A stretch of DNA of 64,000 nucleotides, taken from the NCBI GenBank assembly GCA_035528115.1, contig DATKZF010000002.1, positions 5,751 through 69,750 on the forward strand. The letters run 5' to 3'. The position numbers and the translations under genes are program-made. The notes beneath the pieces are model-generated. The model saw only the letters and a list, made by a program, of their open reading frames with translations. It made no database searches and had not been told where the DNA came from. Shown in pieces: positions 6,910-63,194 of the stretch. This DNA comes from Candidatus Bipolaricaulota bacterium. GTDB lineage: Bacteria > Patescibacteriota > Patescibacteriia > UBA11705 > DATKZF01. The first letter of the stretch is position 1. Each line of letters begins with the position of its first letter.

Positions 6910-6911
6910 TG

Positions 6912-13639: not shown

Positions 13640-13680
13640 CAGCAGGGATTTCGCAACGAAATCCCTGCTGTCTAAAAACA
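13640..13680 (+). terminator. hairpin agcagggatttcgcaacgaaatccctgct followed by an A/T-rich tract (few T)
   Basis: Perfect 12-bp stem directly after the stop of the zinc-ribbon ORF. Confidence 0.5.
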
Positions 13681-13716
13681 TTTTCATTAGAGATAAATTT
13701 CAATAATATGCGCTTC

Positions 13717-14127: not shown

Positions 14128-14134
14128 AAACAAT

Positions 14135-14548: not shown

Positions 14549-14621
14549 AACAACGGCCAAAGCCTTCGTGACTGATAAAAACAAATTAAAATAAAAGCCA
14601 ACAATCCATAACAAAAAACTT

Positions 14622-15152: not shown

Positions 15153-15217
15153 TTGCTTTTAGCGGCATCGTTTGCGAAAAAACGCCACCGGGGATAAAAT
15201 GAAAAGCATCAATATTT

Positions 15218-15764: not shown

Positions 15765-15852
15765 CTGAACCAGCAAGGCTTTAATATTGCCCTCTCCCCC
15801 ATTTTCTACTATACTGGAAGCAATGAACGCGAAAAATTCGCCTTAAAATCCT

Positions 15853-16557: not shown

Positions 16558-16627
16558 TCCCTGTTTTAAAATGAAAAAAGTCTGCCGGTGCAGCAGACGG
16601 GGTGAAAAGGTTGGAGTGTTGCTTGGT

Positions 16628-16831
16628 TCATGCCGCCCTCATCGTTGTGAGGTAGCGCAGACCTTCATCAGTAGCGAGAGCTCTGAGCCCGAGCCGCTTG
16701 AGCATGCCTAAAGTCACCTCCTTGGCTTCGTCTTTTCTCGTAATATCGAGAATTCGCTTGAAACCGGCAGGCCCGAAACGCCGTCTCAGGACTTCGATCT
16801 CGCGATCGAAATCATCGCAGTGAGCGCTCAT
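16628..16831 (-). CDS. hypothetical protein
   Basis: ORF only. Elevated GC (~55 %). Confidence 0.3.
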   Translation of the reverse strand: MSAHCDDFDREIEVLRRRFGPAGFKRILDITRKDEAKEVTLGMLKRLGLRALATDEGLRYLTTMRAA

Positions 16832-16864
16832 GACTCGGTCTCCTTTCCTCTGAAAATATGTAAA

Positions 16865-17197
16865 CTACTTATTGCTGGCGATGAAGTCATCGATCATCTT
16901 ACGGAATGAATCGTCTCCTTCCAAATCGAGGAACATTTTGTCTTTTTCTTCTCGAGGAAGAGTGCTGCCGATGGCCACGTGATACATCAAACATTCATTG
17001 AGTTTCGGCTGTCCGTGCTTGCTCCTCATCTTATTGACCTGCGCAACCATCGTATCGTAGAATTCCAGCACCAGATCGGAATCGTGATCATCCGTCAACT
17101 CCTGAAGTTTGCGCCGATAAATCCGCTCCTGCTCCAACATCTGCTCCGCCACGGCTCTGCCCTCCCCGCTTCCGCTTTGTCCTTCGATTATCGGCAT
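16865..17197 (-). CDS. hypothetical protein
   Basis: ORF only. Elevated GC. Confidence 0.35.
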   Translation of the reverse strand: MPIIEGQSGSGEGRAVAEQMLEQERIYRRKLQELTDDHDSDLVLEFYDTMVAQVNKMRSKHGQPKLNECLMYHVAIGSTLPREEKDKMFLDLEGDDSFRKMIDDFIASNK

Positions 17198-17287
17198 AAA
17201 ATAAATAGGTATCTTATTTCTCCTACCTTTATTTTACCGGACCTGGCATATTAAAGCAATATTCACCTTATTGTCAAATTTCCAAAT

Positions 17288-17884
17288 ATGTTCAAATGGA
17301 TACTCTTTGACCAAGCCAATGTCTTAACGCACCATGTTTTTACCACCAAACCGCTTTATTGCGCTGACAATCAGTGCTTTCCGGCCAAAGATTTGGAAAA
17401 AATTTATTACAGCCCCGAATTCTCCGCTTTCGAACTGGGTAAATTGGATTCGACCGCTCTGATCGATTCTTTTTTAAAACAACACAAAATCTGTCTGACC
17501 GTTCAAGGCTATAAAAAAATTTATCGGGAAAGCATTGAGCCGATCTTCGGCATGAAGGAAATAATCGAAAAATTAAAACAAAATTTCAGATTGGCGACTT
17601 TAATCAATGAAGGCGCCGAATGGGCGGAGCATAAATTCGAAGCCATGGGGTATAAACATTTTTTTGAACGAAATATCATCTCCGGCGATTTGGGAATGGT
17701 CAAGCCGGATGAAAGAATTTATAAAAAAGCTTTGGAGATAATCAATGCCGCGCCGGACGAATGCCTTTTCATCGACGATTTGGAGAAAAATTGCCGCGGC
17801 GCGGAAAACGTCGGCATAAAAGCCATTATGTTCATCAGTCCTGAGCAATTAACCAGGGAACTTGAAAAACTTTCAGTAATTTAA
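17288..17884 (+). CDS. HAD-superfamily hydrolase
   Basis: ILFDQANVL motif I-like start and C-terminal LFIDDLEKN (HAD motif IV DD). Confidence 0.6.
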   Translation: MFKWILFDQANVLTHHVFTTKPLYCADNQCFPAKDLEKIYYSPEFSAFELGKLDSTALIDSFLKQHKICLTVQGYKKIYRESIEPIFGMKEIIEKLKQNFRLATLINEGAEWAEHKFEAMGYKHFFERNIISGDLGMVKPDERIYKKALEIINAAPDECLFIDDLEKNCRGAENVGIKAIMFISPEQLTRELEKLSVI

Positions 17885-17892
17885 AAACAAAA

Positions 17893-17950
17893 ACGCCCAG
17901 CACCTTTTTGAAAGATAATTCATTTTTCAAAAAGGTGCTGGGCGTTTTTT
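17893..17950. terminator. bidirectional rho-independent terminator (16-bp stem cgcccagcaccttttt/aaaaaggtgctgggcg + T6)
   Basis: Lies between convergent genes. T/A runs on both sides. Confidence 0.6.
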
Positions 17951-17960
17951 ATCGTTGATT

Positions 17961-37389: not shown

Positions 37390-38241
37390 TTATTTTAAAC
37401 GGTTATTATCCCCGCGTCCAAGCTGTCGCGAGTTCCGCTTGTCAATCACGCTTTTTCCTGTTTTACTCTCAATCTCTTTTCTGGCGTTGCCGGCCACGTT
37501 CCCTCCTTGTCGCGCCACGACTTTATTTTGATCAAGATTTTTAGGCTCATGCTTTCGTGAAATTTCAGTTGTGGCGGTTTCAGCCAACATATTCAAAACC
37601 AACTCCATATTAGTCATATTGTCCCGCAAATTTTCTTTTTGAAGTTTCTTTAATCTTTTATATTCTTTGGTGGTCATTCCCGCCCAGGCTTCGGTAATTT
37701 CATCGGTTAAAATAGCGAATTCCCGTCCATCGCTAACCCCTCGATGTTCCCATTCATCAGTTAAAGCTTTACGTATCTCAATGCTTTTTAATCTTTGATT
37801 TATCCATTCCGGGCCATAGCCTTTTTGCAGATAGGTTTTTAACGCGCGATTGATAGCCAGCTCTGGATCAGCGGTTTCTTCCAATCTTTCATATCCAACC
37901 CTTGCCAACCATAACTTGAAAGGCTCCGCGTTGGGAGAAGGTATGGACTGAATAAGTCGAAGCATGGTTTCCGTATCAGCGGCGTCAGCAAGGCGCATTT
38001 TGCCGTCAGCGGCAATCATTTTCAAAGCGTGACATTTTGTCACGGTTTCATTTCCGCCCTCTTTAAGCAGTCTTTCCTTAAATTTCCGCCAATATGCCTG
38101 CGGGTCAACGCTCTTGGTCAAAACCGCAATTACATCTGATACGGCAAAATACCACAGCTCTTTATCCTCGTCCCAATGGCGACGGATTTGCTGGCCATCA
38201 AAGATAGCGATTGTCTTATGCTTTAATTGTTTTTTAGCCAT
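37390..38241 (-). CDS. Bro-N domain protein (DinD/antirepressor-like), likely mobile-element derived
   Basis: N-terminal IAIFDGQQIRRHWDEDKELWYFAVSDVIAVL resembles the Bro-N/DinD N-domain. GC (~50 %) is above the local background. Confidence 0.45.
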   Translation of the reverse strand: MAKKQLKHKTIAIFDGQQIRRHWDEDKELWYFAVSDVIAVLTKSVDPQAYWRKFKERLLKEGGNETVTKCHALKMIAADGKMRLADAADTETMLRLIQSIPSPNAEPFKLWLARVGYERLEETADPELAINRALKTYLQKGYGPEWINQRLKSIEIRKALTDEWEHRGVSDGREFAILTDEITEAWAGMTTKEYKRLKKLQKENLRDNMTNMELVLNMLAETATTEISRKHEPKNLDQNKVVARQGGNVAGNARKEIESKTGKSVIDKRNSRQLGRGDNNRLK

Positions 38242-38337: not shown

Positions 38338-39735
38338 TCATTTTTTAAATACCTCATATCCTCCGGCCGTATCCTCCACCTCCCAGCCCAAAACCTCAAT
38401 CTCTTTGCGAAACGAATCAGCCAGCTCAAAATCTTTTTTCTTTCTGGCCGCCAATCTGTCTTCGGCCAATTTTTTGATTGCCGCCGGAATCGCTTCAGGA
38501 TTTAGATTTTCCAAGCCCAGCCCCAATATCGAATCAAATCGAAGCAGCGTCTCTCTCTTGTTAGCTTCTTTTTCTTTTGACTTGATCAAGTCCCAAACGA
38601 TCGCCAAGGCCTGCGGAGTACTAAGATCGTCATTAATCGCTTGATGAAATTTTTCTTCCCAGGCCGGCAAAACCTCGCCCGGATTTTCACCCCAGCTTAA
38701 AAAATCCCGTTTTAATTTGCATAGAGCGCTTTGGGCCGCGGCAATGGCCTCGAGAGAAAAATTCAATTCCTTTCGGTAATGAGTATTCAAAAGCAAATAG
38801 CGGTAATCAAGCGGCTCGAATCCTTTCAAATGCAAATCTTTGAGCGTGGTTATATTGCCCACTGACTTGGCCATTTTTTCATTGTTCATCAAAATAAAAT
38901 TGTTGTGCAGCCAAAATCGAACGAACTGTCGGCCGGTCGCCGCTTCGCTTTGGGCGATTTCATTCGAATGATGCACGGGAATATGATCAATGCCGCCCGT
39001 GTGAACATCAATCGTCTTGCCCAAATATTTCATGGACATGGCCGAGCATTCGATATGCCAGCCCGGAAAGCCGACGCCCCACGGAGAATCCCACTCCATG
39101 TCGCGCTTTTTGTCCTTTGGCGAGAATTTCCACAAAGCGAAATCGGTCGGCTTTTTTTTCTCGCCGATTTCAATTCTCTTGCCCGCTTCAAGTCCGGCAA
39201 TATCGAGCCGCGCCAGTTTGCCATAATCTTTTAATTTGGAAGTGTCGAAATAAACCCCATCCGAAGTTTTATAAGTAAAGCCTTTGGCTTCAAGTTTTTT
39301 CACCAAATCAATCATCGCTTTGATATGGTCGGTCGCCTTGGCCCAGACCATGGGCTCAAGATTGTTGAGCTTAATAAAATCGCTTTTGAAAGCTTCAGTG
39401 TAATACTCGGCGATTTGCCAGGCGGTTTTTCGCTCAGCCGCCGCCTTTTTGGCGATTTTGTCCTCGCCGGAGTCTTCATCTCCGGTCAGGTGGCCGACAT
39501 CAGTGATATTGATTACCTGCCAAACTCGGAATTTATTATAGCGCAAAACTCTTTTTATAATATCGGCAAAAACATAACTTCTGAAATTGCCGATATGCGC
39601 GTAGTCGTAAACGGTCGGACCGCAAGTGTACATTGAAACTGTTTTACGCCACCAACGAATCGGCCTGAATTTTTCCTTTTTTCGAGATAACGTGTTGAAT
39701 AAATGTAAATCCATAATTTTTAAATAAAAAATCAA
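38338..39735 (-). CDS. cysS: cysteinyl-tRNA synthetase
   Basis: YTCGPTVYDYAHIGNFRSYV (HIGH region) and KMAKSVGN (KMSKS). The start may be the second Met at 39714 (MDLHLFNTLSRKKEKF). Confidence 0.9.
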   Translation of the reverse strand: MIFYLKIMDLHLFNTLSRKKEKFRPIRWWRKTVSMYTCGPTVYDYAHIGNFRSYVFADIIKRVLRYNKFRVWQVINITDVGHLTGDEDSGEDKIAKKAAAERKTAWQIAEYYTEAFKSDFIKLNNLEPMVWAKATDHIKAMIDLVKKLEAKGFTYKTSDGVYFDTSKLKDYGKLARLDIAGLEAGKRIEIGEKKKPTDFALWKFSPKDKKRDMEWDSPWGVGFPGWHIECSAMSMKYLGKTIDVHTGGIDHIPVHHSNEIAQSEAATGRQFVRFWLHNNFILMNNEKMAKSVGNITTLKDLHLKGFEPLDYRYLLLNTHYRKELNFSLEAIAAAQSALCKLKRDFLSWGENPGEVLPAWEEKFHQAINDDLSTPQALAIVWDLIKSKEKEANKRETLLRFDSILGLGLENLNPEAIPAAIKKLAEDRLAARKKKDFELADSFRKEIEVLGWEVEDTAGGYEVFKK

Positions 39736-43168: not shown

Positions 43169-45082
43169 CTATTTTTTTTCTTTAAAATCCCCTTCTTGCG
43201 TCTTTTCTTTTTCGTCTTTGGGTTGCTCAGCGTCCGGTTTGGTTTCAGCGCCCGCCTGTTGATTGGCCGCGGCTTGGTTTGAGGCCGCGTACATTTCAGC
43301 GCCTATCTTTTGCGCGGCTTGACCCAAGTCATCGGTCGCTTTTTTAATCGCCTCGAAATCATCGCCGTCTTTTATTTTCTTTAAAGCTTCCAATTTTTCT
43401 TCGAGCGACTTTTTGTCCTCGTCTTTTATTTTGTCAGCTTGTTCTTTAATCAATTTTTCCGTGGTGTAAATCAAACTTTCCGCGATGTTTTTAGCTTCAA
43501 TCGATTCTTTTTTCTTTTTATCTTCCTCGGCGTGAGCTTCGGCGTCTTTTTTCATTTTCTCGATTTCGTCTTTGGACAAACCCGAAGAAGCGGTGATGGT
43601 GATATTTTGCTTTTTGCCCGTGGCCTTATCGGTCGCGGAAACATTCAAAATGCCGTTGGCGTCAATATCGAAAGTCACTTCAACTTGCGGAATGCCTCGC
43701 GGAGCCGGCGGTATGCCGTCCAAAATGAATCGACCCAAAGCTTTATTGTCCCCGGCCATTTCGCGCTCGCCCTGCAAAACATGAATTTCAACCGAAGGCT
43801 GATTGTCCCCGGCCGTGGAAAAAATTTGAGATTTGGAAGTCGGCACCGTGGTGTTTCGCTCTATCAATTTGGTCATCACCCCGCCCAAAGTTTCCAGTCC
43901 CAAAGAAAGCGGAGTCACGTCAAGCAATAATACGTCTTTGACATCGCCCTGCAAAACGCCGGCCTGAACGGCCGCGCCAATGGCCACGACTTCATCCGGA
44001 TTGACTTCCATATTGAGTTTTTTGCCGAAAAACTCTTCGACTTTTTTCTGAACCAGCGGCATTCTGGTCATGCCGCCGACCAAAACGACTTCGTCTATTT
44101 TCGATTTGTCGAGCTTGGCGTCGTCCAGCGCTTTCTTGCATGGCTCAATCGTTTTCTCCACCAAATCCATGACCAGCTCTTCAAGTTTGGCGCGAGACAA
44201 TCTCAAATCAAGATGCAAAGGACTGCCGTCTTTATCCTGAGTGATATAAGGTTGATTGATCAAAGCTTCTTGGCTGGAGCTCAATTCGTGCTTGGCTTTT
44301 TCCGCGGATTCTTTAATTCTTTGCAAAGCCATTTGATCCTTTTTCAAATCAATGCCATTTTGCTTTTTAAACTCTTCGACTATCCAATCAATAATCTTTT
44401 TATCGAAATCATCTCCGCCAAGATGCGTGTCCCCGTTGGTGGACAAAACCTCAATGGTATCGTCGCCGATATCCAAAATGGAAATATCAAAAGTGCCGCC
44501 GCCAAGATCATAAACCGCGATTTTCTGATTTTTCTTTTTATCAAAACCGTAGGCGAGGGCCGCGGCCGTCGGCTCATTGATGATTCTTTTCACCTTCATG
44601 CCCGCGATCTCGCCCGCGTCTTTGGTCGCTTGTCTTTGAGAGTCGTCGAAATAAGCGGGCACGGTGATGATCACCTCTTCGATTTTTTCGCCCAATTTGC
44701 TCTCCGCGTCAGCTTTCAGTTTTTGCAAAATCATGGCGGAAATTTCCTGCGGCGAAAACTCCTTGCCATCCATAGCCACTTTTATACCGGAACCGGACTG
44801 TTTTATTTCGTATGACATGTTCTCCATATCCTCTTTCACTTCCGCGTCATCGGCTCGGCGGCCAATCAATCTTTTCACGGAATAAACAGTGTTCTTCGGA
44901 TTGGTCACGGCCTGGTGTTTGGCTGTCTGCCCGACCAGTCTCTCCCCTGTTTTTGAAATCGCCACAATGGACGGAGTGGTTCTGTTGCCCTCCGAATTTT
45001 CCAAAACCTTGGGCTTGCCGCCCTCGACAATGGCCATGCAGCTGTTGGTTGTTCCCAAGTCAATGCCTAGAATTTTACTCAT
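43169..45082 (-). CDS. dnaK: chaperone DnaK (Hsp70)
   Basis: [26 protein letters not shown], and EEVD-less bacterial C-terminus. 637 aa. Confidence 0.95.
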
Positions 45083-49133: not shown

Positions 49134-50414
49134 TTACCCCATTTCGCCTCCCCTTGCCACCAAAGAATTGTATGCATCCATCAATTTCAAATAATATTCA
49201 CCTGAATTATACTCTTTTTCCGCCTTTTCCCTAGCCTCATTTCCCATTTTTATCAACTTCTCCTTATCATTATACGAAGACTCAATAATTTTTTTCAGCG
49301 ACTCAATATCGCCGACTTTAACCTGATAACCGGTCTTTTCTTCATCAATCAATTCCTGCATGGCTCCGCGTTGATTGGCCACAATGACTTTGCCCAAAGC
49401 CATGCCTTCGAGAATGGTCAAGCCGAAAGTTTCATAATATTTGGACAAATTGAGCACCAAACGAGCGCCGCTGACCTCTTTAATCAAAGCCGACCAGCCG
49501 AGGTGAGGAATAAACTCGATATTTTTCAAATCTTTCGCCAAATCTTTTATTTTCGCTTCATCCGGACCCGAGCCGATTATTTTCAAATGAATATTCGGCA
49601 ACCCTCTCATGACCTTGATCAAAGTGTCATATCCCTTGGCCATTTCCAATCTGCTGTATGAAATGATGTAATCTTTTAATTCGCTGGTCGCGTGAAATCT
49701 GTCCAAATCAATAAAATGAGGCAAGACCCTGATTTTCCCCTCGGGCCAACCCCATTCCACAAACTTGTTTTTGGTGAAATTACTCGGCGTCAAAAACAAA
49801 TCAATGTTTTTTTGATAAACATTCATTAATCGATGAATGGTCGATTCAACGGCAATGGCCAGTCCGGCCAACCGGGAATTCTTGAAACATTTCTGAAACA
49901 CCGGTTGATAGTATTTATAGCGTTTGCATTTTTCGCACACATCCGTTTTATTGAACAGCGTGTAATTGGGACAAATCAATTTATAATCATGGACGGTCAT
50001 CACCGATGGAATATTTCTTTCTTTGGCCGCGGATAAAATCGACGGCGATATTTGATGATAAATATTATGATAATGAATGACATCCGGCTTGAATTCATCC
50101 AGCATTTTTGCGAATTTTCTTTTGGCGTCCAATGAATAAATCATTCGACCGATCATCTTTAAACCGGTCAAACTGTAAATAGGCTTTGACATATCCACAT
50201 AGCTGACGAAATATTTATCAAAATCGCTCTGCTGATTTTGCGGGTGATGCATGGAAAAAAACGCGACCTGATGCCCCTCTTCCGATAATAACCTGGCCTG
50301 CTCGAACATGGAAATTTCAGCGCCGCCTTTCGGGTAAAAAAACTTATTGACCAGCAATATTTTCATATTTTTCAAACTTTTAATTTTTCTTTTTGCGCCA
50401 AGGAAACCACGCAA
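49134..50414 (-). CDS. family 4 (GT-B) glycosyltransferase
   Basis: ETFGLTILEGMALGKVIVANQRGAMQELIDEEKTGYQV (E-x7-E region). Confidence 0.8.
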   Translation of the reverse strand: MRGFLGAKRKIKSLKNMKILLVNKFFYPKGGAEISMFEQARLLSEEGHQVAFFSMHHPQNQQSDFDKYFVSYVDMSKPIYSLTGLKMIGRMIYSLDAKRKFAKMLDEFKPDVIHYHNIYHQISPSILSAAKERNIPSVMTVHDYKLICPNYTLFNKTDVCEKCKRYKYYQPVFQKCFKNSRLAGLAIAVESTIHRLMNVYQKNIDLFLTPSNFTKNKFVEWGWPEGKIRVLPHFIDLDRFHATSELKDYIISYSRLEMAKGYDTLIKVMRGLPNIHLKIIGSGPDEAKIKDLAKDLKNIEFIPHLGWSALIKEVSGARLVLNLSKYYETFGLTILEGMALGKVIVANQRGAMQELIDEEKTGYQVKVGDIESLKKIIESSYNDKEKLIKMGNEAREKAEKEYNSGEYYLKLMDAYNSLVARGGEMG

Positions 50415-51913: not shown

Positions 51914-51973
51914 ATTTACAAATATTATAACATAAATATGACAATCCGATAAATATCATTTTAAAATTATAAA

Positions 51974-52038
51974 AGGGATAGATAAATCTATCCCTTTAGG
52001 CTGACTTTGTCAGCCGGTTAGGTGGCGCTATGGCGCCA
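51974..52038 (-). terminator. three consecutive hairpins (gggatagataaatctatccc; ggctgactttgtcagcc; gtggcgctatggcgccac) downstream of giant gene, at the 33->65 % GC junction
   Basis: Perfect short palindromes read directly. T-rich tract after the first hairpin on the minus strand. Confidence 0.45.
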
Positions 52039-55000
52039 CGCCGCAGTCAAGAGGACACGAGTCCGGGGTCTCGTTCTGGGAGCAGAACAGATCCCCGCAC
52101 ACTTCCCCGCAGTCGGCCGGGCACGAGTTCGTGGTCTCGCTCGCCCGACAGACGGAATCTCCGCAAACGACGCCGCAGTCGGCTCGGCAAGAAACAGTAT
52201 CTTCACCGAGGCCGCAGAAGCCGTCGCCGCAGGACGAGCCACAGTCGCTCGCGCAAGTGACCGGCGTTTCAGGCGCCACGCACGCGCCGTCTCCGCAAAT
52301 CACCCCGCAATCGGCCGGGCAGTTGATGGTGTCCTCGCCGACTCCGCAGAAGCCGTTGCCACACGGTTCTCCGCAATCAGCCGGACACGTTCTGGTGTTT
52401 TCGTTCGCGCTGCAGAGTGTGTCGCCACACTCCCAGCCGCAATCGGCTTCGCAGTTCACGGAACTCTCGAAGCCGTTGCAAATGCCGTCTCCGCAGAGCG
52501 ACCCGCAATCCGCGGCGCAGTTGATCGAGGTTTCGACCGCCGCGTCACAGAAAGCGTCGCCGCAATTTTGGCCGCAATCGCCGGCGCAGTTCGCCGACGT
52601 CTCGCCTCCATTGCAGACATGGTCGCCACATCGGGTACCGCAGTCTGCTGGGCAATTCAGCGTGGTTTCGCCGGGAGTGCAGTCGCCGTTGCCGCAGACG
52701 CTTCCGCAATCTGCCGGACAAGTGGCGCTGTTTTCGTTCTGCGAGCAGTAGGCGTCGCCGCATTCCTGTCCGCAGTCCTCCTCGCAGATGGACGAATCCT
52801 CGCTCGCCCCGCAGGTCGTATCGCCGCAAGCGTCGCCGCAGTCGGCGGGACAGCTGGTCGTCGTTTCCGACTCCCCGCATGTACCGTCGCCGCAAGCATT
52901 GCCGCAGTCAGCCGGGCATGTCACCTGCGTTTCCGCGCCGTTGCAGGCATCATCACCGCAAACATATCCGCAATCGCTCGGACACGTCACCGTGTCTTCG
53001 CCGACACCGCAGATCTTGTTGCCGCAATTCTCGCCGCAATCGGCCGGGCACGTCCGGGTGTCTTCGTTCGGCGAGCAGTATGCGTCTCCGCATACCGCGC
53101 CGCAATCGCTTTCGCAGCTCACCGAGTTTTCCGACTCGCCACATACCATGTCACCGCAGGAATCCCCGCAGTCCACGGCGCAGCTTGCCGAAGTCTCGCC
53201 GGCCGCGCAGAAACCATCGCCGCATTCCAGGCCGCAGTCGGCCGGGCAATTCAGCGTGGTCTCGGTCCAGTTGCAGGCACCATCCCCGCAGGACGAGCCG
53301 CAGTCAAGTGGACAAATCCACGTGCCTTCGCTCATCGAGCAGTAGCCGTCACCACAGGATTCCCCGCAGTCCGGCAGGCAGGTGGCGCTGCTTTCGTTCT
53401 GCGAACAGTAGGCGTCGCCGCACTCCTGTCCGCAATCCGGTTCGCACGAGGACGAATCCTCGTTCCTGCCGCACGCGCCGTCCCCGCAGATATCGCCGCA
53501 GTCATCGGGGCAGCTCGTCGAGCTCTCGCTCGATCCGCATGTCCCGTCGCCACAGCTGTCTCCGCAGTCCGCCGGACACGTCGCGGAATTCTCGGCGCCG
53601 TTGCACGACGTATCGCCGCAGGTCGAGCCACAGTCCGCCGGACAAGAGGACGTATCCTCTCCGTTGCCGCAAACGCCGTTTCCACAACGCTCACCGCAAT
53701 CGTCCGGACACCTGACCGTGTTCTCTCCGCTACCGCAGAAGCCGTCACCGCAGTTCACGCCGCAATCGCTTTCGCAGCTCGCCGGAGTCTCCGACGATCC
53801 GCACACCGTATCACCGCAGGCATCCCCGCAATCCACGGCGCAGTTCGTCGAAGTCTCGCCGGCCGCGCAATAGGCGTCGCCACACTGCGCCCCACAGTCC
53901 GTGAGGCAACTCCAGGTGGTCTCGCCCCAGTTGCACACGCCGTCTCCGCAGCTCGGCCCACAGTCGGCCGGGCAGTTCATCGAGCCTTCGCTCGAAGAAC
54001 ACCACCCGTCGCCGCAGGATTCCCCGCAGTCCGTCATGCACGTAACCGTGGTTTCGGTCCCGTTGCAGGTTCCGTCACCACACTCAGTGCCGCAATCCAG
54101 CGCGCACGTCACCGTGTCCTCGCTGGTATCGCATGCCCCGTCTCCGCAGTACGGCCCGCAGTCCGCGGGACAGCTCGACGTCGTCTCCGACGCTCCGCAC
54201 GTCCCGTCGCCACAGGCGTCGCCACAGTCGCTCGGGCAGCTCGCCGGAGTCTCGGCTCCGTTGCATGCGGCGTCCCCGCAGTTCGTCCCGCAGTCATCCG
54301 GGCACGTCACCGAGCTTTCACTCGATCCGCACGCCGAATCTCCGCAGAAGTCACCGCAGTCCGCCGGGCAACTTCCCTCGTCCTCCGTAGCCGTATCGCA
54401 CTGACCATCGCCACACTGCGTGCCGCAATCGGTCGCGCAGGTCACGCTGGTCTCGCTTCCGTTGCACCTGCCGTCTCCGCAGGTGACCCCACAGTCAAAC
54501 GGGCAGCTCCACGTGCTTTCGCTCGTCGAGCAGTAGCCGTCGCCGCAGTAGTCCCCGCAGTCCGCCGGACAGGTCGCGCTCGTCTCCGAGTCCGGCGAGC
54601 AATACGCATCGCCGCACTCCACTCCGCAGTCCGCCTCGCAGCTTGCGCTGTCCTCGGTCGAACCGCAGGTGCTGTCTCCGCAGACGTCGCCGCAGTCCGC
54701 CGGGCACGTGGTCGAACTCTCGCTCGATCCGCATGTCCCGTCGCCGCAGGCGTCGCCGCAGTCCGCCGGACACGTCACGGACGTTTCCGAACCGTTGCAG
54801 GCGCTGTCGCCGCAAACAAATCCACAGTCCATCGGGCACGTAATCGTGTCCTCCTCAGGACCGCAGACCAGGTTGCCGCACGGCTCGCCGCAATCTGCCG
54901 GGCAAGTCAGCGTCGTTTCGTTCGGGGAGCAGTAGTTGTCCCCGCACTCAACGCCGCAGTCCGCCTCGCAACTCGCCGAGGTCTCCGACGATCCGCATGT

Positions 55001-58000
55001 CCCGTCGCCGCAGCTGTCGCCACAGTCATCGGGACACGTCGCCGAGCTCTCGCCGTTGTCGCAGAAACCATCGCCGCACTGCGTGCCGCAATCGGCCGCG
55101 CAGCTGATGGTGGTCTCCGCTCCGTCGCACCGGTCGTCGCCGCAGCTGGTGCCGCAGTCAGCCGGGCAGCTCGCCGTACTCTCGTTCGCCGAGCAATAGG
55201 TATCACCGCATGCCTCGCCGCAATCGGCGGGGCAAGTCAACGTCGTTTCGGAGCTCGACGAGCAATACGCATCGCCGCACTCCACTCCGCAGTCCGCCTC
55301 GCAGCTTGCGCTGTCCTCGGTCGAACCGCAGGTGTTGTCTCCGCAGACGTCGCCGCAGTCCACCGGGCACGTGGTCGAACTCTCGCTCGATCCGCATGTC
55401 CCGTCGCCGCAGGCGTCTCCGCAGTCGGCCGCACACGTCGCCGGGGTTTCCGCCGTCGGGTCACAGTACGTGTCCCCGCAGACGAATCCGCAGTCGCTCG
55501 GACACGTCACCGTGTCCTCGCCCACTCCGCAGACCCCATTGCCGCACGGCTCCCCACAGTCAGCAGGGCAGCTCACGTCGCTCTCCGTCGGGGAACAGTA
55601 GTTGTCCCCGCACTCAACGCCGCAATCCGCCTCGCAACTCGCCGAATTCTCAGACTCGCCGCACAGGCCGTCACCGCAGGCATCCCCGCAGTCGGCCGGG
55701 CAGCTGATCGTGGTCTCGGATGCGCCGCAGTAACCGTCGCCACAACCGTCCCCGCAATCGCCGGGGCAGCTGGCGAACGTTTCGAGACCGTTGCAGGTCC
55801 CGTCACCGCATTGCTGACCGCAGTCAGCCGGGCAGTTGATGGTGTCTTCGCCGACGCCGCACACCGTGTTTCCACACGGCTCGCCGCAATCGGTCGGACA
55901 CCTCACCGAGTTTTCGCTCGGGCTACAGTAGTTGTCGCCACAGACTTCGCCGCAGTCCGCCTCGCAGCTCACGCTGGTTTCGGAAGCGCCGCAGGCGCCG
56001 TCAGCGCACACATCGCCGCAGTCCGCGGGACAGGTGACCGTCGTTTCCGACGCGCCACAAGTACCATCGCCGCACGTGTCGCCGCAATCGGCCGGACACG
56101 TCGCGGGAGTCTCGGTATCGTTACAGGCGCCGTCGCCGCAGAAATGGCCACAGTCCACAAAGCACGAAACCGTGTCCTCGTCCGGACCGCAATAGCCATC
56201 GCCACAGGAGTCGCCGCAATCCTCGGGGCAGTTCGAGAAACTCTCGCCGCCGTTGCACGCGCCGTCGCCACAGCTCTGTCCGCAGTCAGCGGGACAGGAA
56301 ACCGTGGTCTCGGCGCCATCGCACCGGCCATCACCGCAGGAAGTCCCGCAGTCGGCCGGACAGCCCGACGTTGTTTCCATGGTCGAGCAGAAGGTGTCTC
56401 CGCAGGCCGTGCCGCAGTCAGCCTCGCAGCTGACCGTGTCTTCGGACAGGCCGCAGATGCCGTCGCCGCAGTCATCGCCGCAGTCGAGCGGGCAGTCCGT
56501 GCTGTCCTCGTTGGTCGCGCAGAAGCCATCACCGCAGAGCTCGCCGCAATCTGCCGGGCAGGTCACGGAGCTCTCGGTGCCGTTACAGGTCCCGTCGCCG
56601 CACTGCATGCCGCAGTCGGCCGGACAGTTGATGCTGGTCTCGCCGACGCCGCAAACCGTGTTTCCACACGGCTCACCGCAGTCGATGGGACACCTAATAG
56701 TGTTCTCGTCCGACCCGCAGTACCCGTCGCCGCAGGAATCCCCGCAGTCCTCCGGGCAAGTGGCCGAGGTCTCGGTGCCATTGCAGGCGGTATCGCCGCA
56801 GGCAGCGCCGCAGTCGGCAGGGCAAGTGACCGAATTCTCATCCGGCCCGCAGTACCCGTCGCCACAGGCGTCGCCGCAGTCCTCTGGACAGCTGGCGGGA
56901 TTCTCAGCGCCGCTGCACGCGTTGTCGCCGCAGTCGTCGCCGCAATCCGCGGGACATTTCGCCGCGGTTTCATCGAAACCGCAGTAACCGTCGCCGCAGG
57001 AGTCCCCGCAGTCTTCGGGACAACTGGAGTAGGTCTCCGCGCCGTTGCACGTGCCGTCGGGGCAGAATTCCCCGCAGTCCGCGAAACACGACGAAGAGCT
57101 TTCCTCAGGCCCGCAGTACCCGTCTCCGCAAGCGGAGCCGCAGTCCTCCGGGCAATTCGCAGTGGTCTCGGCGCCGCTGCAAGCGTTGTCGCCGCAGTCG
57201 TCGCCGCAATCCGCGGGACAGCTGGCCGCGGTTTCGTCGAAACCACAGTAACCGTCGCCGCAGGTATCCCCACAATCCTCCGGACACGTCGCCGGCGTTT
57301 CACCGCCATTGCACGCGCCGTCGGGACACAGCTCTCCGCAGTCCGAAAGGCACGTCACCGTGCTTTCGTCCGGACCGCAGACGCCGTTACCGCAAACCTC
57401 GCCGCAATCGCTCGGACACTTGACCGTGTCCTCGAGACTCGGCGAACAGAATGCGTCACCGCAGGTCGCCCCGCAGTCGATTTCGCAGCTGGTCGTGGTT
57501 TCCGACGCGCCGCAAACTCCGTCACCGCAGTCGTCCCCACAGTCGGCCGGACAGACACCGGAATTCTCACCGGGTCCGCACGTGCCGTCGCCGCAGTTCT
57601 CCCCGCAGTCGGCCGGGCAGCTGGCCGTCGTCTCGAGCCCGTTGCACGAGCCGTCGCCGCAGCTGTTGCCGCAATCGGCAACGCACGAAGCGGTGGTCTC
57701 AGTCAGGGCGCACACCGTGTTGCCGCAGTACTCGCCGCAATCGGCGGCGCACTTGACCGAATCCTCGTCCGCGGAGCAATGGCCGTCTCCGCAGGACTGA
57801 CCGCAGTCAGCCTCGCAGATGGCCGAGCTCTCCAAGGCGCCGCACGAAGCGTCGCCGCAGACGTTGCCGCAGTCGGCCGGACACGAGATCGTGTCTTCGT
57901 CCGGGCCGCAGAAAACGTCGCCGCATTCGTCCCCACAGTCCTCAGGGCAGGCCGCGTTGGTTTCCGTGCCGTTGCAGGCGCGGTCGCCACACTGCATGCC

Positions 58001-59245
58001 GCAGTCCTGGGGACAGGACACGGTGGTTTCGCCATCTCCGCACACGGTGTTGCCGCAAGGCTCGCCGCAGTCGGCCGGACAACTGACCGTGCCCTCGTCG
58101 GGAGAGCAGAAGTCATCGCCACATACCACTCCGCAGTCCTGCTGGCAGTTCCAGGTACGCTCGGTGAGGCCGCAGAGGCCGTCACCGCAGTCATCGCCGC
58201 AGTCGAGAGGACAATTCGTCGTCCCCTCGCCCGGGCCACAATCGCCGTCACCGCAGTACGTGCCGCAATCGGCAACACAGTCCAGAGAGGACTCCGTGCC
58301 GTTGCAAACTCCGTCGCCGCAGAGACTGGCGCAGTCTGCCGGACAACTCATGGTCGTCTCGGCATTGTTGCACGTCCCATCGCCGCAGGCCGTGCCGCAA
58401 TCGTACGGACAGCTGGCCGTGTTCTCGACTCCGTTGCAGGAGCCGTCGCCGCAGGCCGTGCCGCAGTCGTGCGGACAGTTCTGCGATGTCTCGTGCGCCG
58501 GGTCACAGAACCCGTCGCCGCAGTAGCTCTGGATCGGGGGCGCGCAGCCCTCGTCCACGAAGCCGTCGCAGTCGTTGTCCAGTCCGTCGCTGCAGACCTC
58601 GGGCGCGCCGGGGTAAACCGACGCGTTCAGGGGCGCGCAGTCGACGTTGTCGGGAGAGCCGTCGCCGTCCTGATCGGGCGGAGGCGGCTGACCGCAGTCG
58701 GCCGGACAGGTCACGGTCGTCTCGCCGTTGTTGCACGTGCCGTCGCCACACCACATGGTGGGCTGGCCGCCGCAGTCGGCCGGACAGCTCATTGCCGTCT
58801 CGCCGTTGTTACAGCTGCCATCGCCACACCACACGGTGGGCTGGCCGCCGCAATCGGCCGGACAGCTCATTGCCGTTTCCGTGCCATTGCAGCTGCCGTC
58901 GCCACACCACACGGTGGGCTGGCCGCCGCAATCGGTCGGACAGCTCTGCTGGGTCTCGCCGTTGTTGCAGCTGCCGTCGCCACACCACATGGTGGGAGAC
59001 TGGTTGCAGTCGGCGGGACAGTTGACGGGGGTCTCGATGGCGCTACAAACGCCATCACCGCAGACCGCCGGATTCGAACCTTGGGAGTTGTCGTACTCCC
59101 AATCGTTCGGCACGCACCGATGATCATCGGTGCAGTAGTGCCCTTCCGGGCAATCCACTCCGCCATTGCACTGCTTGTTGTCATCGCCACAACCGGCGAG
59201 AAGCAGCGCGACCAAGGCCACCAGGAACCAGAAACGTGCCTTCAT
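52028..59245 (-). CDS. giant secreted lipoprotein (2,405 aa) composed almost entirely of ~100 tandem Cys-rich CGDGxC-x4-5-E[TS]-x3-CPxDCG repeats
   Basis: Start chosen at [20 protein letters not shown] (lipobox) with GGGAGGA RBS. N-terminal MopE-like motif [33 protein letters not shown]. About 18 % Cys. Third-position GC strongly elevated. Confidence 0.8.
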
Positions 59246-59559
59246 GGTTTTCCTCCCGTGTTCGGCACTGTAAAGAAACGCGAAACTCAACTCTTGAGTT
59301 TTCGGTTGTCAAAGGTCAGCCAATTTGGCTGGAAGCAATGAAAAAGCAAAAAATTTTTCACTATTTCCAGCCAAATTTCATTCCCAAAGACGCAATTTTT
59401 GCACCTTATTAGGACAGCTAAACTTAACAAAAAAACATAGTTTTGTCAAGTTTTTTGGGCTATTTTTTAAATACACAATTTTTTGCCAATTTGTCAAGTT
59501 TATTTTTTAATAAATTTAGCCAAAACTTCCACTTATGAAGTCGATTTTAAACGGATTAA

Positions 59560-59637: not shown

Positions 59638-61350
59638 TTACTGATTTCCTCCGGCGGCCGTGGCCCCGGGGAGGTACATTTTCAAGGCCGCCCCGGTGCC
59701 GGTGCACCAGAGGTAGCCGCCGGCGACGGCCTGAGGATCGGACTCGTCGCAAATTGCGCCGTAGTCCGCCCAGTCGATCGGGTGGCCGGAGTTTGACGAG
59801 TCGTACTGGACGTACGTAAACTCGCAGACTCCGGAGTAAAGGATGTCGCTCGGCTGGAATCGAAATTCGATCCAGCCATCCATGTCACCGTCGTAGAACG
59901 GCCCCATCCTGCCGTCCCAGACATACGTGATGCCCAGCTGGGGACAATCCCCCAGGATCCAGACCTCCGTGTCGTTGCTCACGTATTTACGATTGAGCTT
60001 GACACAGTTGGCCTCGTACGGGCAGGGCTCGGCCACGACGTCGTCGCCGGTCTCAGTGGGAGCAGACGACCCGCTGCATGCCTCCCAGTGGAAGGTGCAG
60101 TCGGCGTTGCACCACAGCGTCCCGGTCCAGCCGTGCTTGGCGCACGACTCGCCGTTCAGCTTGGTGTAGTCGCACTCCTCGCCGGCGTCGATGACATCGT
60201 TGCCGCAGGTCGGCGACGAGTCTCCCCCGCTGCATGCCTCCCAATGGAAGGTGCAATCGGCGTTGCACCACAGCGTCCCGGACCATCCGTGCTTGGCGCA
60301 CGACTCGCCGTCCAGCTGGGTATAGTCACATTCCTCGCCCGCGTCGAGTACGCCGTTGCCGCAGGTCGGCGACACCTCCCCGCCGCTGCATGCCTCCCAA
60401 TGGAAGGTGCAGTCGGCGTTGCACCACAGCGTCCCGATCCAGCCGTGCTTGACGCACGACTCGCCGTCCAGCTGGGTATAGTCACATTCCTCGCCTGCGT
60501 CGAGTACGCCGTTGCCGCAGGTCTGCGACACGTCTCCACCGCTGCACGCCTCCCAGTGGAAGGTGCAGTCAGTGTTGCACCATAGCTCTCCCGACCAGCC
60601 GTGCTTCGCGCACGACTCGCCGTTCAGCTTGGTGTAGTCACATTCCTCGCCCGCATCCAGGATATCGTTTCCGCAAACCCCGGAAGGGTCAGGATCGGGG
60701 TCGGGCATGGGATTTGGCGAACACGACTCGTCGGTCAAGCCGTCGCAGTCGTTGTCCACTCCGTCCCCGCACTCCTCGTTGTAGTACTGGCACGCCCCCC
60801 ACTGCCTGTTCTGGCAATGGGTGATGCCGATCTTGCAACCGGTCGGGGTGTAGCACCAATCGACTTGATTGGTCTGGCACTCGACCGTCGACAACGGCCG
60901 CTCGTTGACGTTGACGTCCACGTCGTTGTTGTTGTCGACATTGACGTTGTCAACGGCCTCGCACACGCAGGCGTTGACCGTGACGTCAACGTGCGTGCCG
61001 TCCGGACAAGTGACGGTCGCTTGCCCGTCTCTCGCGGGCGCGCTGGTCTGCTCAGCGAAGCAGAACTGCTCCGCCTCGCTCCAGCTCGCGCCGGTCGGAC
61101 AGAAAGCGCACTTGCCCGTCGCGGTCAGGTGAGCCCCGACCGGACAGGTCTTGCCCGCGCCGCTCTCGTATGGCGGCGCGTACGCATTCTGGCCGGTGAC
61201 TGCCGGCTGGTACTCGTAGCCAGCTTCCACACAAGCGCCGTCTTCGGCGCAGAAGTGCCCCGAAGGGCAACTGTTTTCGAAACACCCCCCCGCGTCTCCG
61301 CAGGAGGCAACCAGGAAACAGACGAAACCAAGAAAAATCAACCGTTTCAT
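59638..61350 (-). CDS. secreted Cys-rich repeat protein with four near-identical 50-aa Myxococcus-type Cys repeats and a MopE-like metal-binding motif
   Basis: Signal/lipobox MKRLIFLGFVCFLVASCG. Four tandem repeats of CGNGVLDAGEECDYTQLDGESCAKHGWSGTLWCNADCTFHWEACSGG. GDGVDNDCDGLTDESC. C-terminal domain shared with 61641-63194. Confidence 0.75.
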   Translation of the reverse strand: MKRLIFLGFVCFLVASCGDAGGCFENSCPSGHFCAEDGACVEAGYEYQPAVTGQNAYAPPYESGAGKTCPVGAHLTATGKCAFCPTGASWSEAEQFCFAEQTSAPARDGQATVTCPDGTHVDVTVNACVCEAVDNVNVDNNNDVDVNVNERPLSTVECQTNQVDWCYTPTGCKIGITHCQNRQWGACQYYNEECGDGVDNDCDGLTDESCSPNPMPDPDPDPSGVCGNDILDAGEECDYTKLNGESCAKHGWSGELWCNTDCTFHWEACSGGDVSQTCGNGVLDAGEECDYTQLDGESCVKHGWIGTLWCNADCTFHWEACSGGEVSPTCGNGVLDAGEECDYTQLDGESCAKHGWSGTLWCNADCTFHWEACSGGDSSPTCGNDVIDAGEECDYTKLNGESCAKHGWTGTLWCNADCTFHWEACSGSSAPTETGDDVVAEPCPYEANCVKLNRKYVSNDTEVWILGDCPQLGITYVWDGRMGPFYDGDMDGWIEFRFQPSDILYSGVCEFTYVQYDSSNSGHPIDWADYGAICDESDPQAVAGGYLWCTGTGAALKMYLPGATAAGGNQ

Positions 61351-61640: not shown

Positions 61641-63194
61641 CTAGAAGTGCAACTCGCCGTCGAGCCAGCAGCTGGTGGCGTCGCACTCCACCTGGAGCCC
61701 GCACTTGAAGACGGTGCAGTATAGCCCCTGGCCGCAGCACGCCAGAGGATTCGCGTAGTTCGCGCAGTCTCCGTACTGCGCGAAGTCGAACGGATCCCCG
61801 TCCATGCTGTTGTCCGGCTGGACGTAGGTGAACCGCAGGGTTCCCACGCCGGCCGGGACGATGAATTCGTAGTACCCGTCACCATCGGTATCCGTGAACG
61901 GACCGAGGCGATCGTCCCAATCGTAGCTAGGGCCACCGAACTTGGTCGAGCCCTCGACCACATGTCCGGCTTCGTCGATCTCATCGCCCAAGACGTAGAT
62001 CTCGGGCGAGTTGCTCGTCGGGAATCCCTTGTACAGACCGATGACTCGGCCTCCCAGGGACTTCACGATCTCCGTGCACTCGAAGTTGACCGGGCCCGGA
62101 CAGGCGCCGCAGTCAACCGCGCAGGTGGAGCATGTCTCCGTGCCCGCGCAGAACCCGTCTCCGCAGATGACGGGATCCTCGGAACCGCACGCTTCCAGGT
62201 GGAAGGTGCAGTCCGGGTTGCACCAGAGCTCACCGGTGTCAAACCCCAGTGACTGGCAGGTCTTGCCGTTGAGCTGGTAGTTGTCGCACTGCTCCGTGCC
62301 CTCGAGCACGTTGTTGCCGCAGATCTGAGTCGGCGTGGGCGGCGTGTTGGAACAGCCGCTCACGTCGAAGTGACACGACTCCAGGCACCCGAGGGCGCCA
62401 CCACCGTTGTAGCCGAGCGTCAGGCAGGTCGCCCCGCCGAACGCCAGGCCGTCGCATTGCTCGCCGCTGTCGAGGAACCCGTCCCCGCAGTGGCTGACCG
62501 GCGGCTGCGCGCACCCGTCGTCGGGCACACCGTCGCAGTCCTCGTCGATGCCGTTGCCGCAGACCTCAACCGCGCCCGGGTGGACGCTGGCGTTGAGGTC
62601 GTTGCAGTCCTGCGACGCCGGCGACCCGTCGTGGTCGCGGTCCGGGTCGCAGTCGGCCGGACAGTTGTCGAAGCTCTCGCCGAGCTCGCACTGCCCGTTG
62701 CCGCAGATCGGTCCGCCCGACGGCGGGCAGTCCTGCGGACAGTTGGCATTGTTCTCGCCATTGCCGCAGGTTCCGTTGCCACAGATCTCTGTGGCCGACA
62801 GCGGCGGGATGATGTTGTTGACGATGACGGTACTTCCGCCCTCAGGCTTGTCCGCGCAAACGCCGTTGTTGTTCGCGGACACGCCGTCCTCGTCGCAGTG
62901 ACCGACCTCGGCGCGCGCGTCGTCGAAGACGCAGCGCGTGCCGGGCAGGCACTCGTCGTTCGTGATGCACCCGGGAACGCACTTGAACGCGTTCTCCGGA
63001 CACGCCAGCTCCTTGACCTCTCGACAGACAGTGCCGCAGGAGCATTGCCCCTGATCGGCTCCGCTGACGTTGGTCCCGCAATCGGGGTAGTTCACAGCCT
63101 CACAGCTGGGGACTACGGTGTAGTTTTCGTCCGTGCCGCAACCGCTCAGCGCGGCCGCGACGACCAGAGCCACCAGACACAACATGCTCTTCAT
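61641..63194 (-). CDS. secreted Cys-rich lipoprotein, paralog of 59638-61350 (MopE-like motif + Myxo-type Cys repeats + shared C-terminal domain)
   Basis: Start at MKSMLCLVALVVAAALSGCG with AGGAGAG RBS. DCNDLNASVHPGAVEVCGNGIDEDCDGVPDDGC. CGNNVLEGTEQCDNYQLNGKTCQSLGFDTGELWCNPDCTFHLEAC. Confidence 0.75.
   Translation of the reverse strand: MKSMLCLVALVVAAALSGCGTDENYTVVPSCEAVNYPDCGTNVSGADQGQCSCGTVCREVKELACPENAFKCVPGCITNDECLPGTRCVFDDARAEVGHCDEDGVSANNNGVCADKPEGGSTVIVNNIIPPLSATEICGNGTCGNGENNANCPQDCPPSGGPICGNGQCELGESFDNCPADCDPDRDHDGSPASQDCNDLNASVHPGAVEVCGNGIDEDCDGVPDDGCAQPPVSHCGDGFLDSGEQCDGLAFGGATCLTLGYNGGGALGCLESCHFDVSGCSNTPPTPTQICGNNVLEGTEQCDNYQLNGKTCQSLGFDTGELWCNPDCTFHLEACGSEDPVICGDGFCAGTETCSTCAVDCGACPGPVNFECTEIVKSLGGRVIGLYKGFPTSNSPEIYVLGDEIDEAGHVVEGSTKFGGPSYDWDDRLGPFTDTDGDGYYEFIVPAGVGTLRFTYVQPDNSMDGDPFDFAQYGDCANYANPLACCGQGLYCTVFKCGLQVECDATSCWLDGELHF

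Follow-up and report, generated by a model that had tools for sequence, protein, structure and literature searches.

Is a 7.2-kb reading frame that encodes little besides one four-cysteine unit, repeated about a hundred times, a real gene, and if so, what might its product do for the cell that carries it? The question is raised by a 64,000-nucleotide (nt) stretch of DNA, here called the window, taken from NCBI GenBank assembly GCA_035528115.1 (contig DATKZF010000002.1, positions 5,751 to 69,750 of the forward strand), in which an original prediction, made from the letters alone, had placed a giant cysteine-rich lipoprotein gene on the minus strand. We find that positions 52028 to 59245 hold a genuine, intact gene of a bacterium that belongs, by the relatives of its DnaK, to the Patescibacteria, or candidate phyla radiation (CPR). 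Its product carries the longest array of this module that we found, and we propose that it may form a fiber at the cell surface.

The giant gene and its expression signals

The gene, the signals around it, and the parts of its 2,405-amino-acid (aa) product are as follows.

52028..59245, minus strand: giant lipoprotein gene, 2,405 aa, mature protein of about 234 kDa
59462..59489, minus strand: promoter-like site in the AT-rich spacer (GC 0.30) 5' of the gene, a consensus match only
59252..59257, minus strand: Shine-Dalgarno sequence GGGAGG, read from the sequence, 6 nt upstream of the ATG
51972..51997, minus strand: terminator-like hairpin and T-run, 30 nt past the stop codon
59189..59245, minus strand: signal peptide, aa 1-19, ending in lipobox L-A-G-C, with lipidation predicted at Cys19
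59063..59188, minus strand: small N-terminal Cys knot (C-x5-C-x5-CPxGHxC-x6-C) and spacer, aa 20-61
58694..59062, minus strand: five four-Cys units, 26-aa period, linker GGQPT[VM]W, aa 62-184
58523..58693, minus strand: Pro-rich, TSP3-like acidic linker with one MopE-type motif, aa 185-241
52043..58522, minus strand: uninterrupted array of 98 four-Cys units, 22-aa period, aa 242-2401

The sense open reading frame (ORF) extends over 52028..59290 on the minus strand, and the preferred start, the ATG at 59245 with its Shine-Dalgarno sequence, yields exactly 2,405 aa, in agreement with the uninterrupted frame first proposed. We judge the gene to be real because it combines this ribosome-binding site and start codon with a lipobox, a terminator, a GC content at third codon positions (GC3) of 0.78 in the sense frame, and 103 units of the form C-x4-C-x8/9-C-x3-C, as counted by regular expression, where 2,000 composition-preserving shuffles predict 0.24 and never gave more than 3. 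Several further TTGACA motifs lie near the promoter-like site. No tRNA or Rfam feature was found in the 64,000-nt window.

The protein is 17.5% Cys, 15.5% Gly, 12.4% Asp, 8.9% Ser, and 8.7% Thr, with only 0.2% Lys and 0.7% Arg; its 461 Asp and Glu residues stand against 23 Lys and Arg residues, for a net charge of about -440. The earlier estimates of about 18% Cys, about 65% GC (measured, 0.64 to 0.70), and about 100 tandem units (103, of which 98 are contiguous) were thus close, and the predicted lipobox is present as LAGC at Cys19, within the pattern [LVI][ASTVI][GAS]-C, although matches to lipoprotein signal-peptide models are weak. Neither lgt nor lspA was seen in the approximately 71 kb of genome examined.

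Scans of the full-length protein against Pfam and NCBIfam gave no match, and isolated pieces had to be scanned, as bias correction masks the MopE motif in the full-length scan. Scanned alone, the single copy of the PF11617 motif, at about aa 196 to 231, scored 49.7 bits against a gathering cutoff of 27. The motif had been predicted correctly, although not its N-terminal location, as it comes after the signal peptide, the knot, and five units. Besides this motif the protein has no Pfam or NCBIfam domain, in keeping with the predicted absence of an enzymatic domain, and it ends four residues (aa 2402-2405) past the last unit. Neither a distal adhesive or ligand-binding domain, a PA14-like variable domain, nor a MYXO-CTERM tag was found in these scans.

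Architecture of the repeat array

The 98-unit array has the consensus C-G-D-G-x-C-[GNS]-x-x-E-[TDS]-[TS]-x-[ST]-C-P-A-D-C-G-x-x. Its linkers are always exactly three residues long, without exception, and the true period is therefore 22 aa, where units of about 20 aa had originally been described; the module itself spans 19 to 20 residues. In the first five units the period is 26 aa. Among 91 aligned units, there is no variation at C1, C6, E10, C15, D18, or C19; G2 and G20 reach 97% or more, and position 3 holds either D or N in every unit. The four-Cys pattern was foreseen, but the spacing from C6 to E10 is x3, or x4 in seven units, and not x4-5 as first written. The 420 gaps between consecutive Cys residues measure 3 (200 gaps), 4 (103), 8 (96), 7 (7), 9 (7), 5 (3), or 6 (1) residues, with 14, 17, and 18 once each; by this count, the protein contains no CC, CxC, or CxxC motif. 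It has seven His residues.

The N-terminal knot is shared with the neighboring gene n1 and with a homolog on a separate metagenome contig, L088, both described below. At 58692-58996, units 1 to 5 make up a younger sub-array (78-nt period, 85% matches), which is evidence of ongoing expansion at the 5' end of the gene, and the array has grown by block duplications of 5 and 10 units. Identity between units averages 59% at the DNA level and exceeds 85% in just 3 of 4,560 pairs, and tandem-repeat detection (TRF) recovered the gene in patches only; the units are old at the DNA level. Synonymous codons are mixed at invariant residues (57 GAG and 34 GAA at E10; 34 TGT and 57 TGC at C15; 62 GAC and 29 GAT at D18). 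This mixture, together with the 59% identity between units, indicates that conservation acts on the protein and is not a product of DNA homogenization.

Predicted structure and role

The AlphaFold2 model of four units, built with 24 paralog rows, has a predicted local distance difference test score (pLDDT) of 71.6 and shows one four-residue helix per unit, at CPxDC, in an otherwise irregular chain; it is compatible with small cross-linked knots. The module occurs in a four-Cys form and in a six-Cys form, CGDGxCxxxExCxxCxxDCGxC, and of 841 units with the extra Cys three positions before C3, 820 also have a Cys three positions after C4, for an odds ratio of about 150. The extra pair is gained and lost together and therefore follows the pattern of a disulfide pair; by inference from these alignments, the four invariant Cys residues would form two disulfides per unit. 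By analogy with small modules that combine disulfides with Ca2+, the residues D/N3, E10, and D18, along with the extreme acidity of the protein, suggest possible Ca2+ binding.

We propose the following model. The protein would be exported and probably lipidated, with its N-terminal lipid anchored in the cell membrane and the remainder lying outside the cell. Each module of 19 to 20 residues would be a mini-knot with two disulfide bonds, in which the acidic trio D3, E10, and D18 may hold a Ca2+ ion, and the chained modules would make a long, stiff, protease-resistant, very negatively charged fiber, presumably a rod of some 0.1 to 0.2 µm if each unit adds 1 to 2 nm. Such a fiber would amount to a “presentation stalk” without a head and could serve as a surface spacer, coat, or attachment fiber of an episymbiotic cell, while the partner lipoproteins encoded by n1 and its paralog n2, with a C-terminal domain of their own, may supply specificity. 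That the giant protein is such a disulfide-stapled, possibly Ca2+-binding, polyanionic, lipid-anchored surface fiber for spacing or attachment is the reading we favor, with moderate confidence. A surface role is backed by the setting of the gene: the products of n1 and n2 and one further protein are lipoproteins too, L088 carries the gene pair as well, Cys-rich genes occupy the syntenic site in two relatives (L005 and L006), and Wzz, Wzy_C, and GT4 genes flank the locus. The Cys-rich stalk of TraA and the Cys-rich proteins of Peribacteria, both compared below, are precedents for this reading. It is also possible that the Thr- and Ser-rich units are O-glycosylated, given the adjacent Wzy_C-family gene, as that Pfam family also includes protein O-oligosaccharyltransferases of the PglL type.

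A bolder version of this proposal, which we consider doubtful, is that the locus specifies a surface organelle of a whole CPR clade: a lipid-anchored, polyanionic rod of uncatalogued two-disulfide modules, possibly loaded with Ca2+ and roughly 0.1 to 0.2 µm long, which together with n1/n2-type partners and their rare C-terminal domain would bridge or space episymbiont and host. Its genes would be kept GC rich in an AT-rich genome by a process specific to the locus, whether repeated exchange with hosts or donors of high GC content, as surface mimicry, or GC-biased conversion between the repeats. If that were true, such fibers could be widespread and yet systematically missing from protein databases, since gene callers favor the stop-free antisense frame and assemblies break within the arrays. 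Contact between CPR bacteria and their hosts is poorly understood beyond type IV pili, and a lipid-anchored fiber module is a testable candidate.

The original prediction had also offered a metal-chelating sheath. In an anoxic habitat, the Cys residues could stay reduced, and the chain would then present about 103 sites, each made of four Cys residues or of Cys with Asp or Glu, that bind Zn, Fe, Cu, Ni, or sulfide, as an extracellular metal sponge or sheath or, speculatively, as a redox chain. Each unit does offer four invariant Cys residues plus invariant D/E residues, CPxDCG can be read as a CPxCG metal “knuckle” with one residue inserted, and the one PF11617 copy bears the name “putative metal-binding motif,” which is an annotation only, as is the Pfam label “Cu-binding” that the original prediction used. 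One observation counts both for metal binding and against the disulfide fiber: in the region examined, we saw no enzyme that forms disulfides, such as a Dsb- or VKOR-type oxidase. However, the module is abundant in secreted proteins of the Myxococcota, which are mostly aerobic, and the extra Cys pair comes and goes jointly, as a disulfide would. The C-x4-C and C-x3-C spacings are not those of canonical metal knuckles, and His is nearly absent. Nor does the protein resemble a metallothionein, as it lacks CC, CxC, and CxxC clusters, carries a signal peptide, and has a mass of 234 kDa. A metal array is unlikely in our estimation, and a chelating sheath, while possible, is less likely than a disulfide-stabilized structural fiber.

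Distribution of the four-cysteine module

An exhaustive hidden Markov model (HMM) search with a four-unit profile returned 3,975 cluster representatives at an E value of 1e-3 or less, 1,751 of them at 1e-10 or less and 335 at 1e-30 or less; matches to the sense product reach an E value of 1e-160. In a word-indexed search, the matches were labeled Myxococcota, “Deltaproteobacteria,” Omnitrophota, Anaerolineae, and Staskawiczbacteria. Elsewhere the module forms N- or C-terminal arrays of multidomain secreted or lipoprotein-type proteins. The extreme copy number first noted is borne out: among the 251 best hits of two database-wide searches, the next-richest protein has 44 units, with a longest contiguous run of 22, versus 103 units, 98 of them contiguous, in the giant protein.

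No Pfam model, NCBIfam model, or solved structure matches the four-Cys unit. The earlier statement that it has no obvious described counterpart is accurate in that the unit is uncurated, but the unit is common, and a 2016 paper had already reported clusters of large, Cys-rich extracellular proteins from CPR bacteria (PMC4736985). The module is widespread yet uncurated; interest comes from the record length of the array, the partner-gene module that recurs in CPR genomes, the antisense annotation that conceals the protein, and the persistent excess of GC3 in these genes. Our searches define a very common extracellular mini-module, present in Myxococcota, CPR bacteria, Omnitrophota, Chloroflexota, and others, for which the 103 natural variants in one chain are an ideal seed for a family model and structural work.

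A DNA-level scan of metagenomes with a single protein found two loci and recovered a further example, L088 (JABAHP010020461.1). There, a lipoprotein gene of the n1/n2 type is followed by an AT-rich spacer and then by an array gene with a lipobox, an N-terminal knot of the giant-protein type, and at least 30 contiguous units that run off the contig. The giant gene and its n1/n2-type partner therefore recur as a pair in a second, independent metagenome contig.

Host lineage and the GC-rich island

The 80 best genomic relatives of the DnaK encoded at 43169-45082 (about 68 to 85% identity) are overwhelmingly Patescibacteria/CPR and include Falkow-, Kerfeld-, Moran-, and Uhrbacteria. CPR-typical families, DUF5656 and T4SS_pilin, also occur in the region. 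The NCBI label “Candidatus Bipolaricaulota bacterium,” attached to HUT22084.1, HUT22093.1, and other proteins, is probably wrong, because both the DnaK relatives and this gene content point to a Patescibacteria/CPR host, a tiny and probably symbiotic bacterium.

The giant gene is the last of seven codirectional genes in a GC-rich island of 15.7 kb (about 3650 to 19400 in the coordinates of L003), which has a GC content of 0.6 to 0.72 in a genome of about 0.40. The window ends inside the island, which runs about 3.7 kb further (L003, 3650 to 7350). The island splits a locus for surface polysaccharides: a Wzz-like gene and HtrA lie at one end, and at the other lie Wzy_C and GT4 genes that are host-like in composition. 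The neighbors of the giant gene within the window are the following.

59638..61350, minus strand: n1, partner gene, 570-aa Cys-rich lipoprotein, HUT22093.1
61641..63194, minus strand: n2, paralog of n1, 517-aa Cys-rich lipoprotein, HUT22094.1
63506..64000, minus strand: 3' part of a 213-aa GC-rich gene that starts past the end of the window, product with lipobox LMASC and a C-terminal transmembrane segment
50372-51913, minus strand: Wzy_C-family membrane protein, 513 aa, directly downstream of the giant gene
49134-50414, minus strand: GT4 glycosyltransferase

The n1 product combines a degenerate MopE-like motif, below the Pfam threshold, with four 52-aa DUF4215-like repeats and a rare C-terminal domain. 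Its repeats lie at 60070-60654 as four 156-nt tandem copies of 89% identity that encode a six-Cys repeat (CGNGVLDAGEECDYTQLDGESC..HGW.G.LWCN.DCTFHWEAC); the repeat falls below the thresholds of TIGR02232 and PF13948, although its homologs do carry PF13948. The n2 product has a PF11617 motif, a few four-Cys and six-Cys minirepeat units, 52-aa DUF4215-like repeats, and the n1-type C-terminal domain. This common domain of about 130 aa (59641-60042 and 61644-62090; ...DGDG.YEF...FTYVQ.D.S..G.P.D.A.YG...) belongs to no family, was found elsewhere in only one database protein (P0271) and in the neighbor gene of L088, and gave a predicted model with a pLDDT of 39 from a three-row alignment.

The remaining island genes encode a 244-aa protein and two membrane proteins of 299 and 477 aa with N-terminal zinc ribbons (the two at L003, 3688 to 6122). 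In the 477-aa protein, the zinc ribbon is accompanied by a transmembrane segment and a long coiled coil; in the 299-aa protein, it is followed by an acidic tract, a collagen-like GPxG repeat, and then a C-terminal transmembrane segment. PHROG matches of the 299-aa protein are to the collagen repeat only and do not count as evidence of a prophage. No integrase or transposase flanks the island.

The flanking genes are ordinary: HrcA-GrpE-sHSP-DnaK-DnaJ, CysRS (38338-39735), MetRS, MurJ, MreB, Pol III delta', and glycosyltransferases. Positions 17961-20153, on the minus strand, encode a probable surface protein of 730 aa with CarboxypepD_reg domains and a bacterial TSP3 repeat, and 37390-38241, also on the minus strand and between the CysRS and Dus genes, encode a 283-aa protein with a weak match to Bro-N, a domain often associated with phages. 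The segment from about 2000 to 14000 has a lower GC content (0.32 to 0.39; GC3 of MetRS, 0.24) than the middle of the window (0.40 to 0.49) and contains several genes without a family match, a nucleotidyltransferase gene, and a gene for a DKNYY-family protein.

GC3 anomaly and origin of the island

The giant gene, n1, n2, and the small genes of the island have GC3 values of 0.78 to 0.87 and the 477-aa gene one of 0.65, versus 0.24 to 0.55 in the rest of the window, and promoter-like and terminator-like sites lie in the AT-rich spacers (GC 0.27 to 0.32) upstream of each island gene. Two genomes, L005 and L006, are closest by DnaK, one at 85% and the other at 82% identity, and in them, too, Cys-rich genes of the MopE type are found at the syntenic site, which lies upstream of (Wzy)-GT4-HrcA-GrpE-sHSP-DnaK; in L005, a Wzy-like gene comes after the Cys-rich genes. 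The GC3 of the Cys-rich genes exceeds the value expected under host codon usage in all three genomes (0.80 versus 0.57 in the window, 0.74 versus 0.56 in L006, and 0.47 versus 0.33 in L005). In a Staskawiczbacteria gene with the four-Cys minirepeat, by comparison, GC3 was 0.52 versus 0.53 expected from host codon usage; the minirepeat itself therefore does not force a high GC3.

Because the best relatives of the array and of n1 are found in Myxococcota-type bacteria (Myxococcota, Sandaracinaceae, and “Deltaproteobacteria”), a comparison of sequences suggests that the island is horizontally derived. The GC3 excess across the clade, coupled with host-like AT-rich spacers, implies that neither a simple recent transfer nor simple amelioration fits. 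Candidate explanations are an ancient transfer followed by slow amelioration, repeated exchange with donors of high GC content, and a process confined to the locus that biases its GC content; the pattern is relevant to how reduced genomes acquire genes horizontally and ameliorate them.

A foreign origin also frames a rival to any cellular role for the giant protein, namely, that the island is cargo from a high-GC, Myxococcota-like donor and that its runaway array is poorly expressed or decaying and of little use to the host. The GC3 contrast between all seven island genes and their surroundings, the taxonomy of the best homologs, and the GC3 of 0.85 in a Myxococcota homolog (genome GC, 0.70) are what such an origin would produce. 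Decay, however, is at odds with a frame that is intact across 7.2 kb and with key residues that are invariant despite synonymous divergence, and each gene has a host-like AT-rich spacer with promoter-like and terminator-like sites. Cys-rich, GC-enriched genes have moreover been kept at the syntenic site in two relatives that have diverged to 82 to 85% identity in DnaK, and a similar gene pair exists in L088. Useless cargo thus appears quite improbable.

Assembly integrity

All assemblies of the locus are of short reads, and the first question asked of so long an array must be whether its repeats were collapsed or expanded, so that its copy number or continuity is wrong. The longest exact repeat in the gene is 76 nt, and k-mers of 77 nt or more never recur, so that the gene has a unique path in a k=141 de Bruijn graph. 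Comparing two pipelines, we found the whole gene 100% identical in a 138-kb MEGAHIT contig from ENA (k141_3262450) and a 151-kb contig from JGI (Ga0307380_10000089). A Logan contig (k=31) is identical as well but ends at 54625, inside the sole cluster of repeated 31- to 55-mers. This break and the Cys-rich genes at the contig ends of L005, L006, and L088 are what could be said for an artifact; against one stand the single path at k=141, the rarity of unit pairs above 85% nucleotide identity, the identity of the two pipelines, and a frame and 22-aa register that are unbroken over 98 units. The giant gene is not an assembly artifact, and we consider an error in its copy number or continuity to be very unlikely; this refutation, which the original prediction had named, comes out in favor of the gene. 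A chimeric contig was likewise rejected: the GC content switches at gene boundaries and does so again at each spacer between genes, and independent assemblies give the same junctions.

In related genomes, Cys-rich repeat genes are cut by contig ends (L005, 1 to 3466; L006, 1 to 1473; L088, 4070 to 6552; and the start of L002). That the contigs end in such genes indicates that these loci are underassembled by short reads, and long arrays are likely undercounted.

The antisense frame and missing annotation

The ENA and JGI gene calls annotate not the giant gene but a 2,439-aa ORF in exact antisense codon register with it.

52022..59341, plus strand: antisense “shadow” ORF, 2,439 aa, rich in Ala, Arg, Val, and Gly; L003 coordinates 12010-19329 map exactly onto it (as 52022-59341)

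Since the sense gene uses no TCA, TTA, or CTA codon, 2,439 antisense codons follow one another without a stop. No antisense stop was observed versus about 7.5 expected under island codon usage (P of about 0.0005 to 0.001, computed post hoc), which we regard as a curiosity noted after the fact and inflated because the units descend from one another. That the ORF is a real or additional gene is extremely improbable: it is 19 codons longer than the TTG-start sense ORF and 34 longer than the ATG-start gene, has no stops, and was chosen by both callers, but its low-complexity product has no signal peptide and no database match whereas the sense product matches thousands, its GC3 is 0.55 versus 0.78, it runs opposite to all neighbors and crosses the promoter and terminator of the sense gene, and its stop-free frames are not independent events in units of common descent. 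Not even itself was returned when the antisense product was searched against databases, probably through low-complexity filtering, and exact look-ups were also negative. The giant gene is co-oriented with its neighbors, and its signal peptide, ribosome-binding site, and terminator all lie on the sense strand. The minus strand is the coding strand, as originally argued from the character of the antisense translation.

The true 2,405-aa protein is absent from a collection of 15 billion proteins, and a search of 5.8 billion proteins gave no self-match, because the public gene calls chose the antisense ORF. This is an annotation blind spot: in GC-rich, Ser- and Leu-poor repeat genes, a stop-free antisense frame was favored by the ENA and JGI calls. 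Owing to such miscalling and to contigs that end within these loci, long arrays are probably underrepresented in protein databases, and the largest members of the repeat class are likely undercounted.

Comparison with known systems

Bacterial TSP3 repeats and LDL-receptor class A modules are short, Ca2+-related modules of extracellular proteins with intramodule disulfides and conserved acidic residues; the former are the subject of a paper by Dai et al. (2017). The unit of the giant protein resembles them in its shortness, its conserved acidic residues, and its probable disulfides, but similarity at the HMM level is weak or absent in the linker and unit pieces (TSP_3, E=0.065, for the linker; Ldl_recept_a, E=8.5).

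The original prediction had derived the unit from the six-Cys Myxococcus repeat (TIGR02232; PF13948, DUF4215). The two are alike in that the unit starts with CG[DN]G, is acidic, and is extracellular, and both co-occur in the same proteins and in n1 and n2. Unlike that repeat of about 38 to 52 aa, however, the unit is 22 aa long and has a different Cys pattern. Neither TIGR02232 nor PF13948 matched the full protein or the isolated arrays, even at an E value of 10 or less, and hhalign gave a probability of 0.8% between the unit profile and the DUF4215-like repeats of the neighbors, a comparison in which short profiles have low power. The proposed derivation is thus not supported, at least for any link closer than a very distant one.

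The closest architectural relatives are lipoproteins of the Myxococcota type, P0005 and P0125, in which 15 to 18 contiguous 22-aa units are fused to a large domain. These proteins and P0128 share with the giant protein the 22-aa period, the three-residue linkers, the consensus, and often an N-terminal lipobox, but they join 11 to 18 contiguous units to a large globular domain, whereas the giant protein has 98 contiguous units and no such domain. TraA of Myxococcus xanthus is a lipid-anchored protein with a Cys-rich region described as a presentation stalk that disulfides stiffen (PMC12045341), and the giant protein similarly reads as a lipid-anchored, Cys-rich stalk at the cell surface. Unlike the giant protein, TraA bears a variable, PA14-like head, is anchored at its C terminus by MYXO-CTERM, and is built on a beta-hairpin repeat; the giant protein has no head, an N-terminal lipobox anchor, and a different, 22-aa module.

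Within the CPR, Peribacteria encode clustered, large (about 1,650-aa), Cys-rich extracellular proteins with signal peptides, for which attachment or rigidity was proposed and which weakly resemble Myxococcus Cys-rich repeat proteins (Anantharaman et al. 2016, PMC4736985). The giant protein is similar in its CPR host, its size, its signal peptide, its Cys content, and its clustering with similar genes, as the island holds at least three further lipoprotein-type genes, two of which (n1 and n2) are Cys rich. Compared by description, the Peribacteria proteins have about 7% Cys and mixed domains, unlike the 17.5% Cys, pure 103-unit array, and lipobox of the giant protein. The giant proteins of Omnitrophota, for which adhesion was proposed, are built of Ig-like, HEAT, dockerin, or TSP3 domains plus functional domains, with cysteine unmentioned (bioRxiv 10.1101/2023.11.21.568195); like them, the giant protein is very long and repetitive and would lie at the surface of an organism with a probably cell-associated lifestyle. 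Of the features that mark fibrillar adhesins, it has the repetitive stalk and the cell anchor without the distal adhesive domain. We conclude that the giant protein is not categorically new; it is an extreme, headless variant of the known Cys-rich repeat surface proteins.

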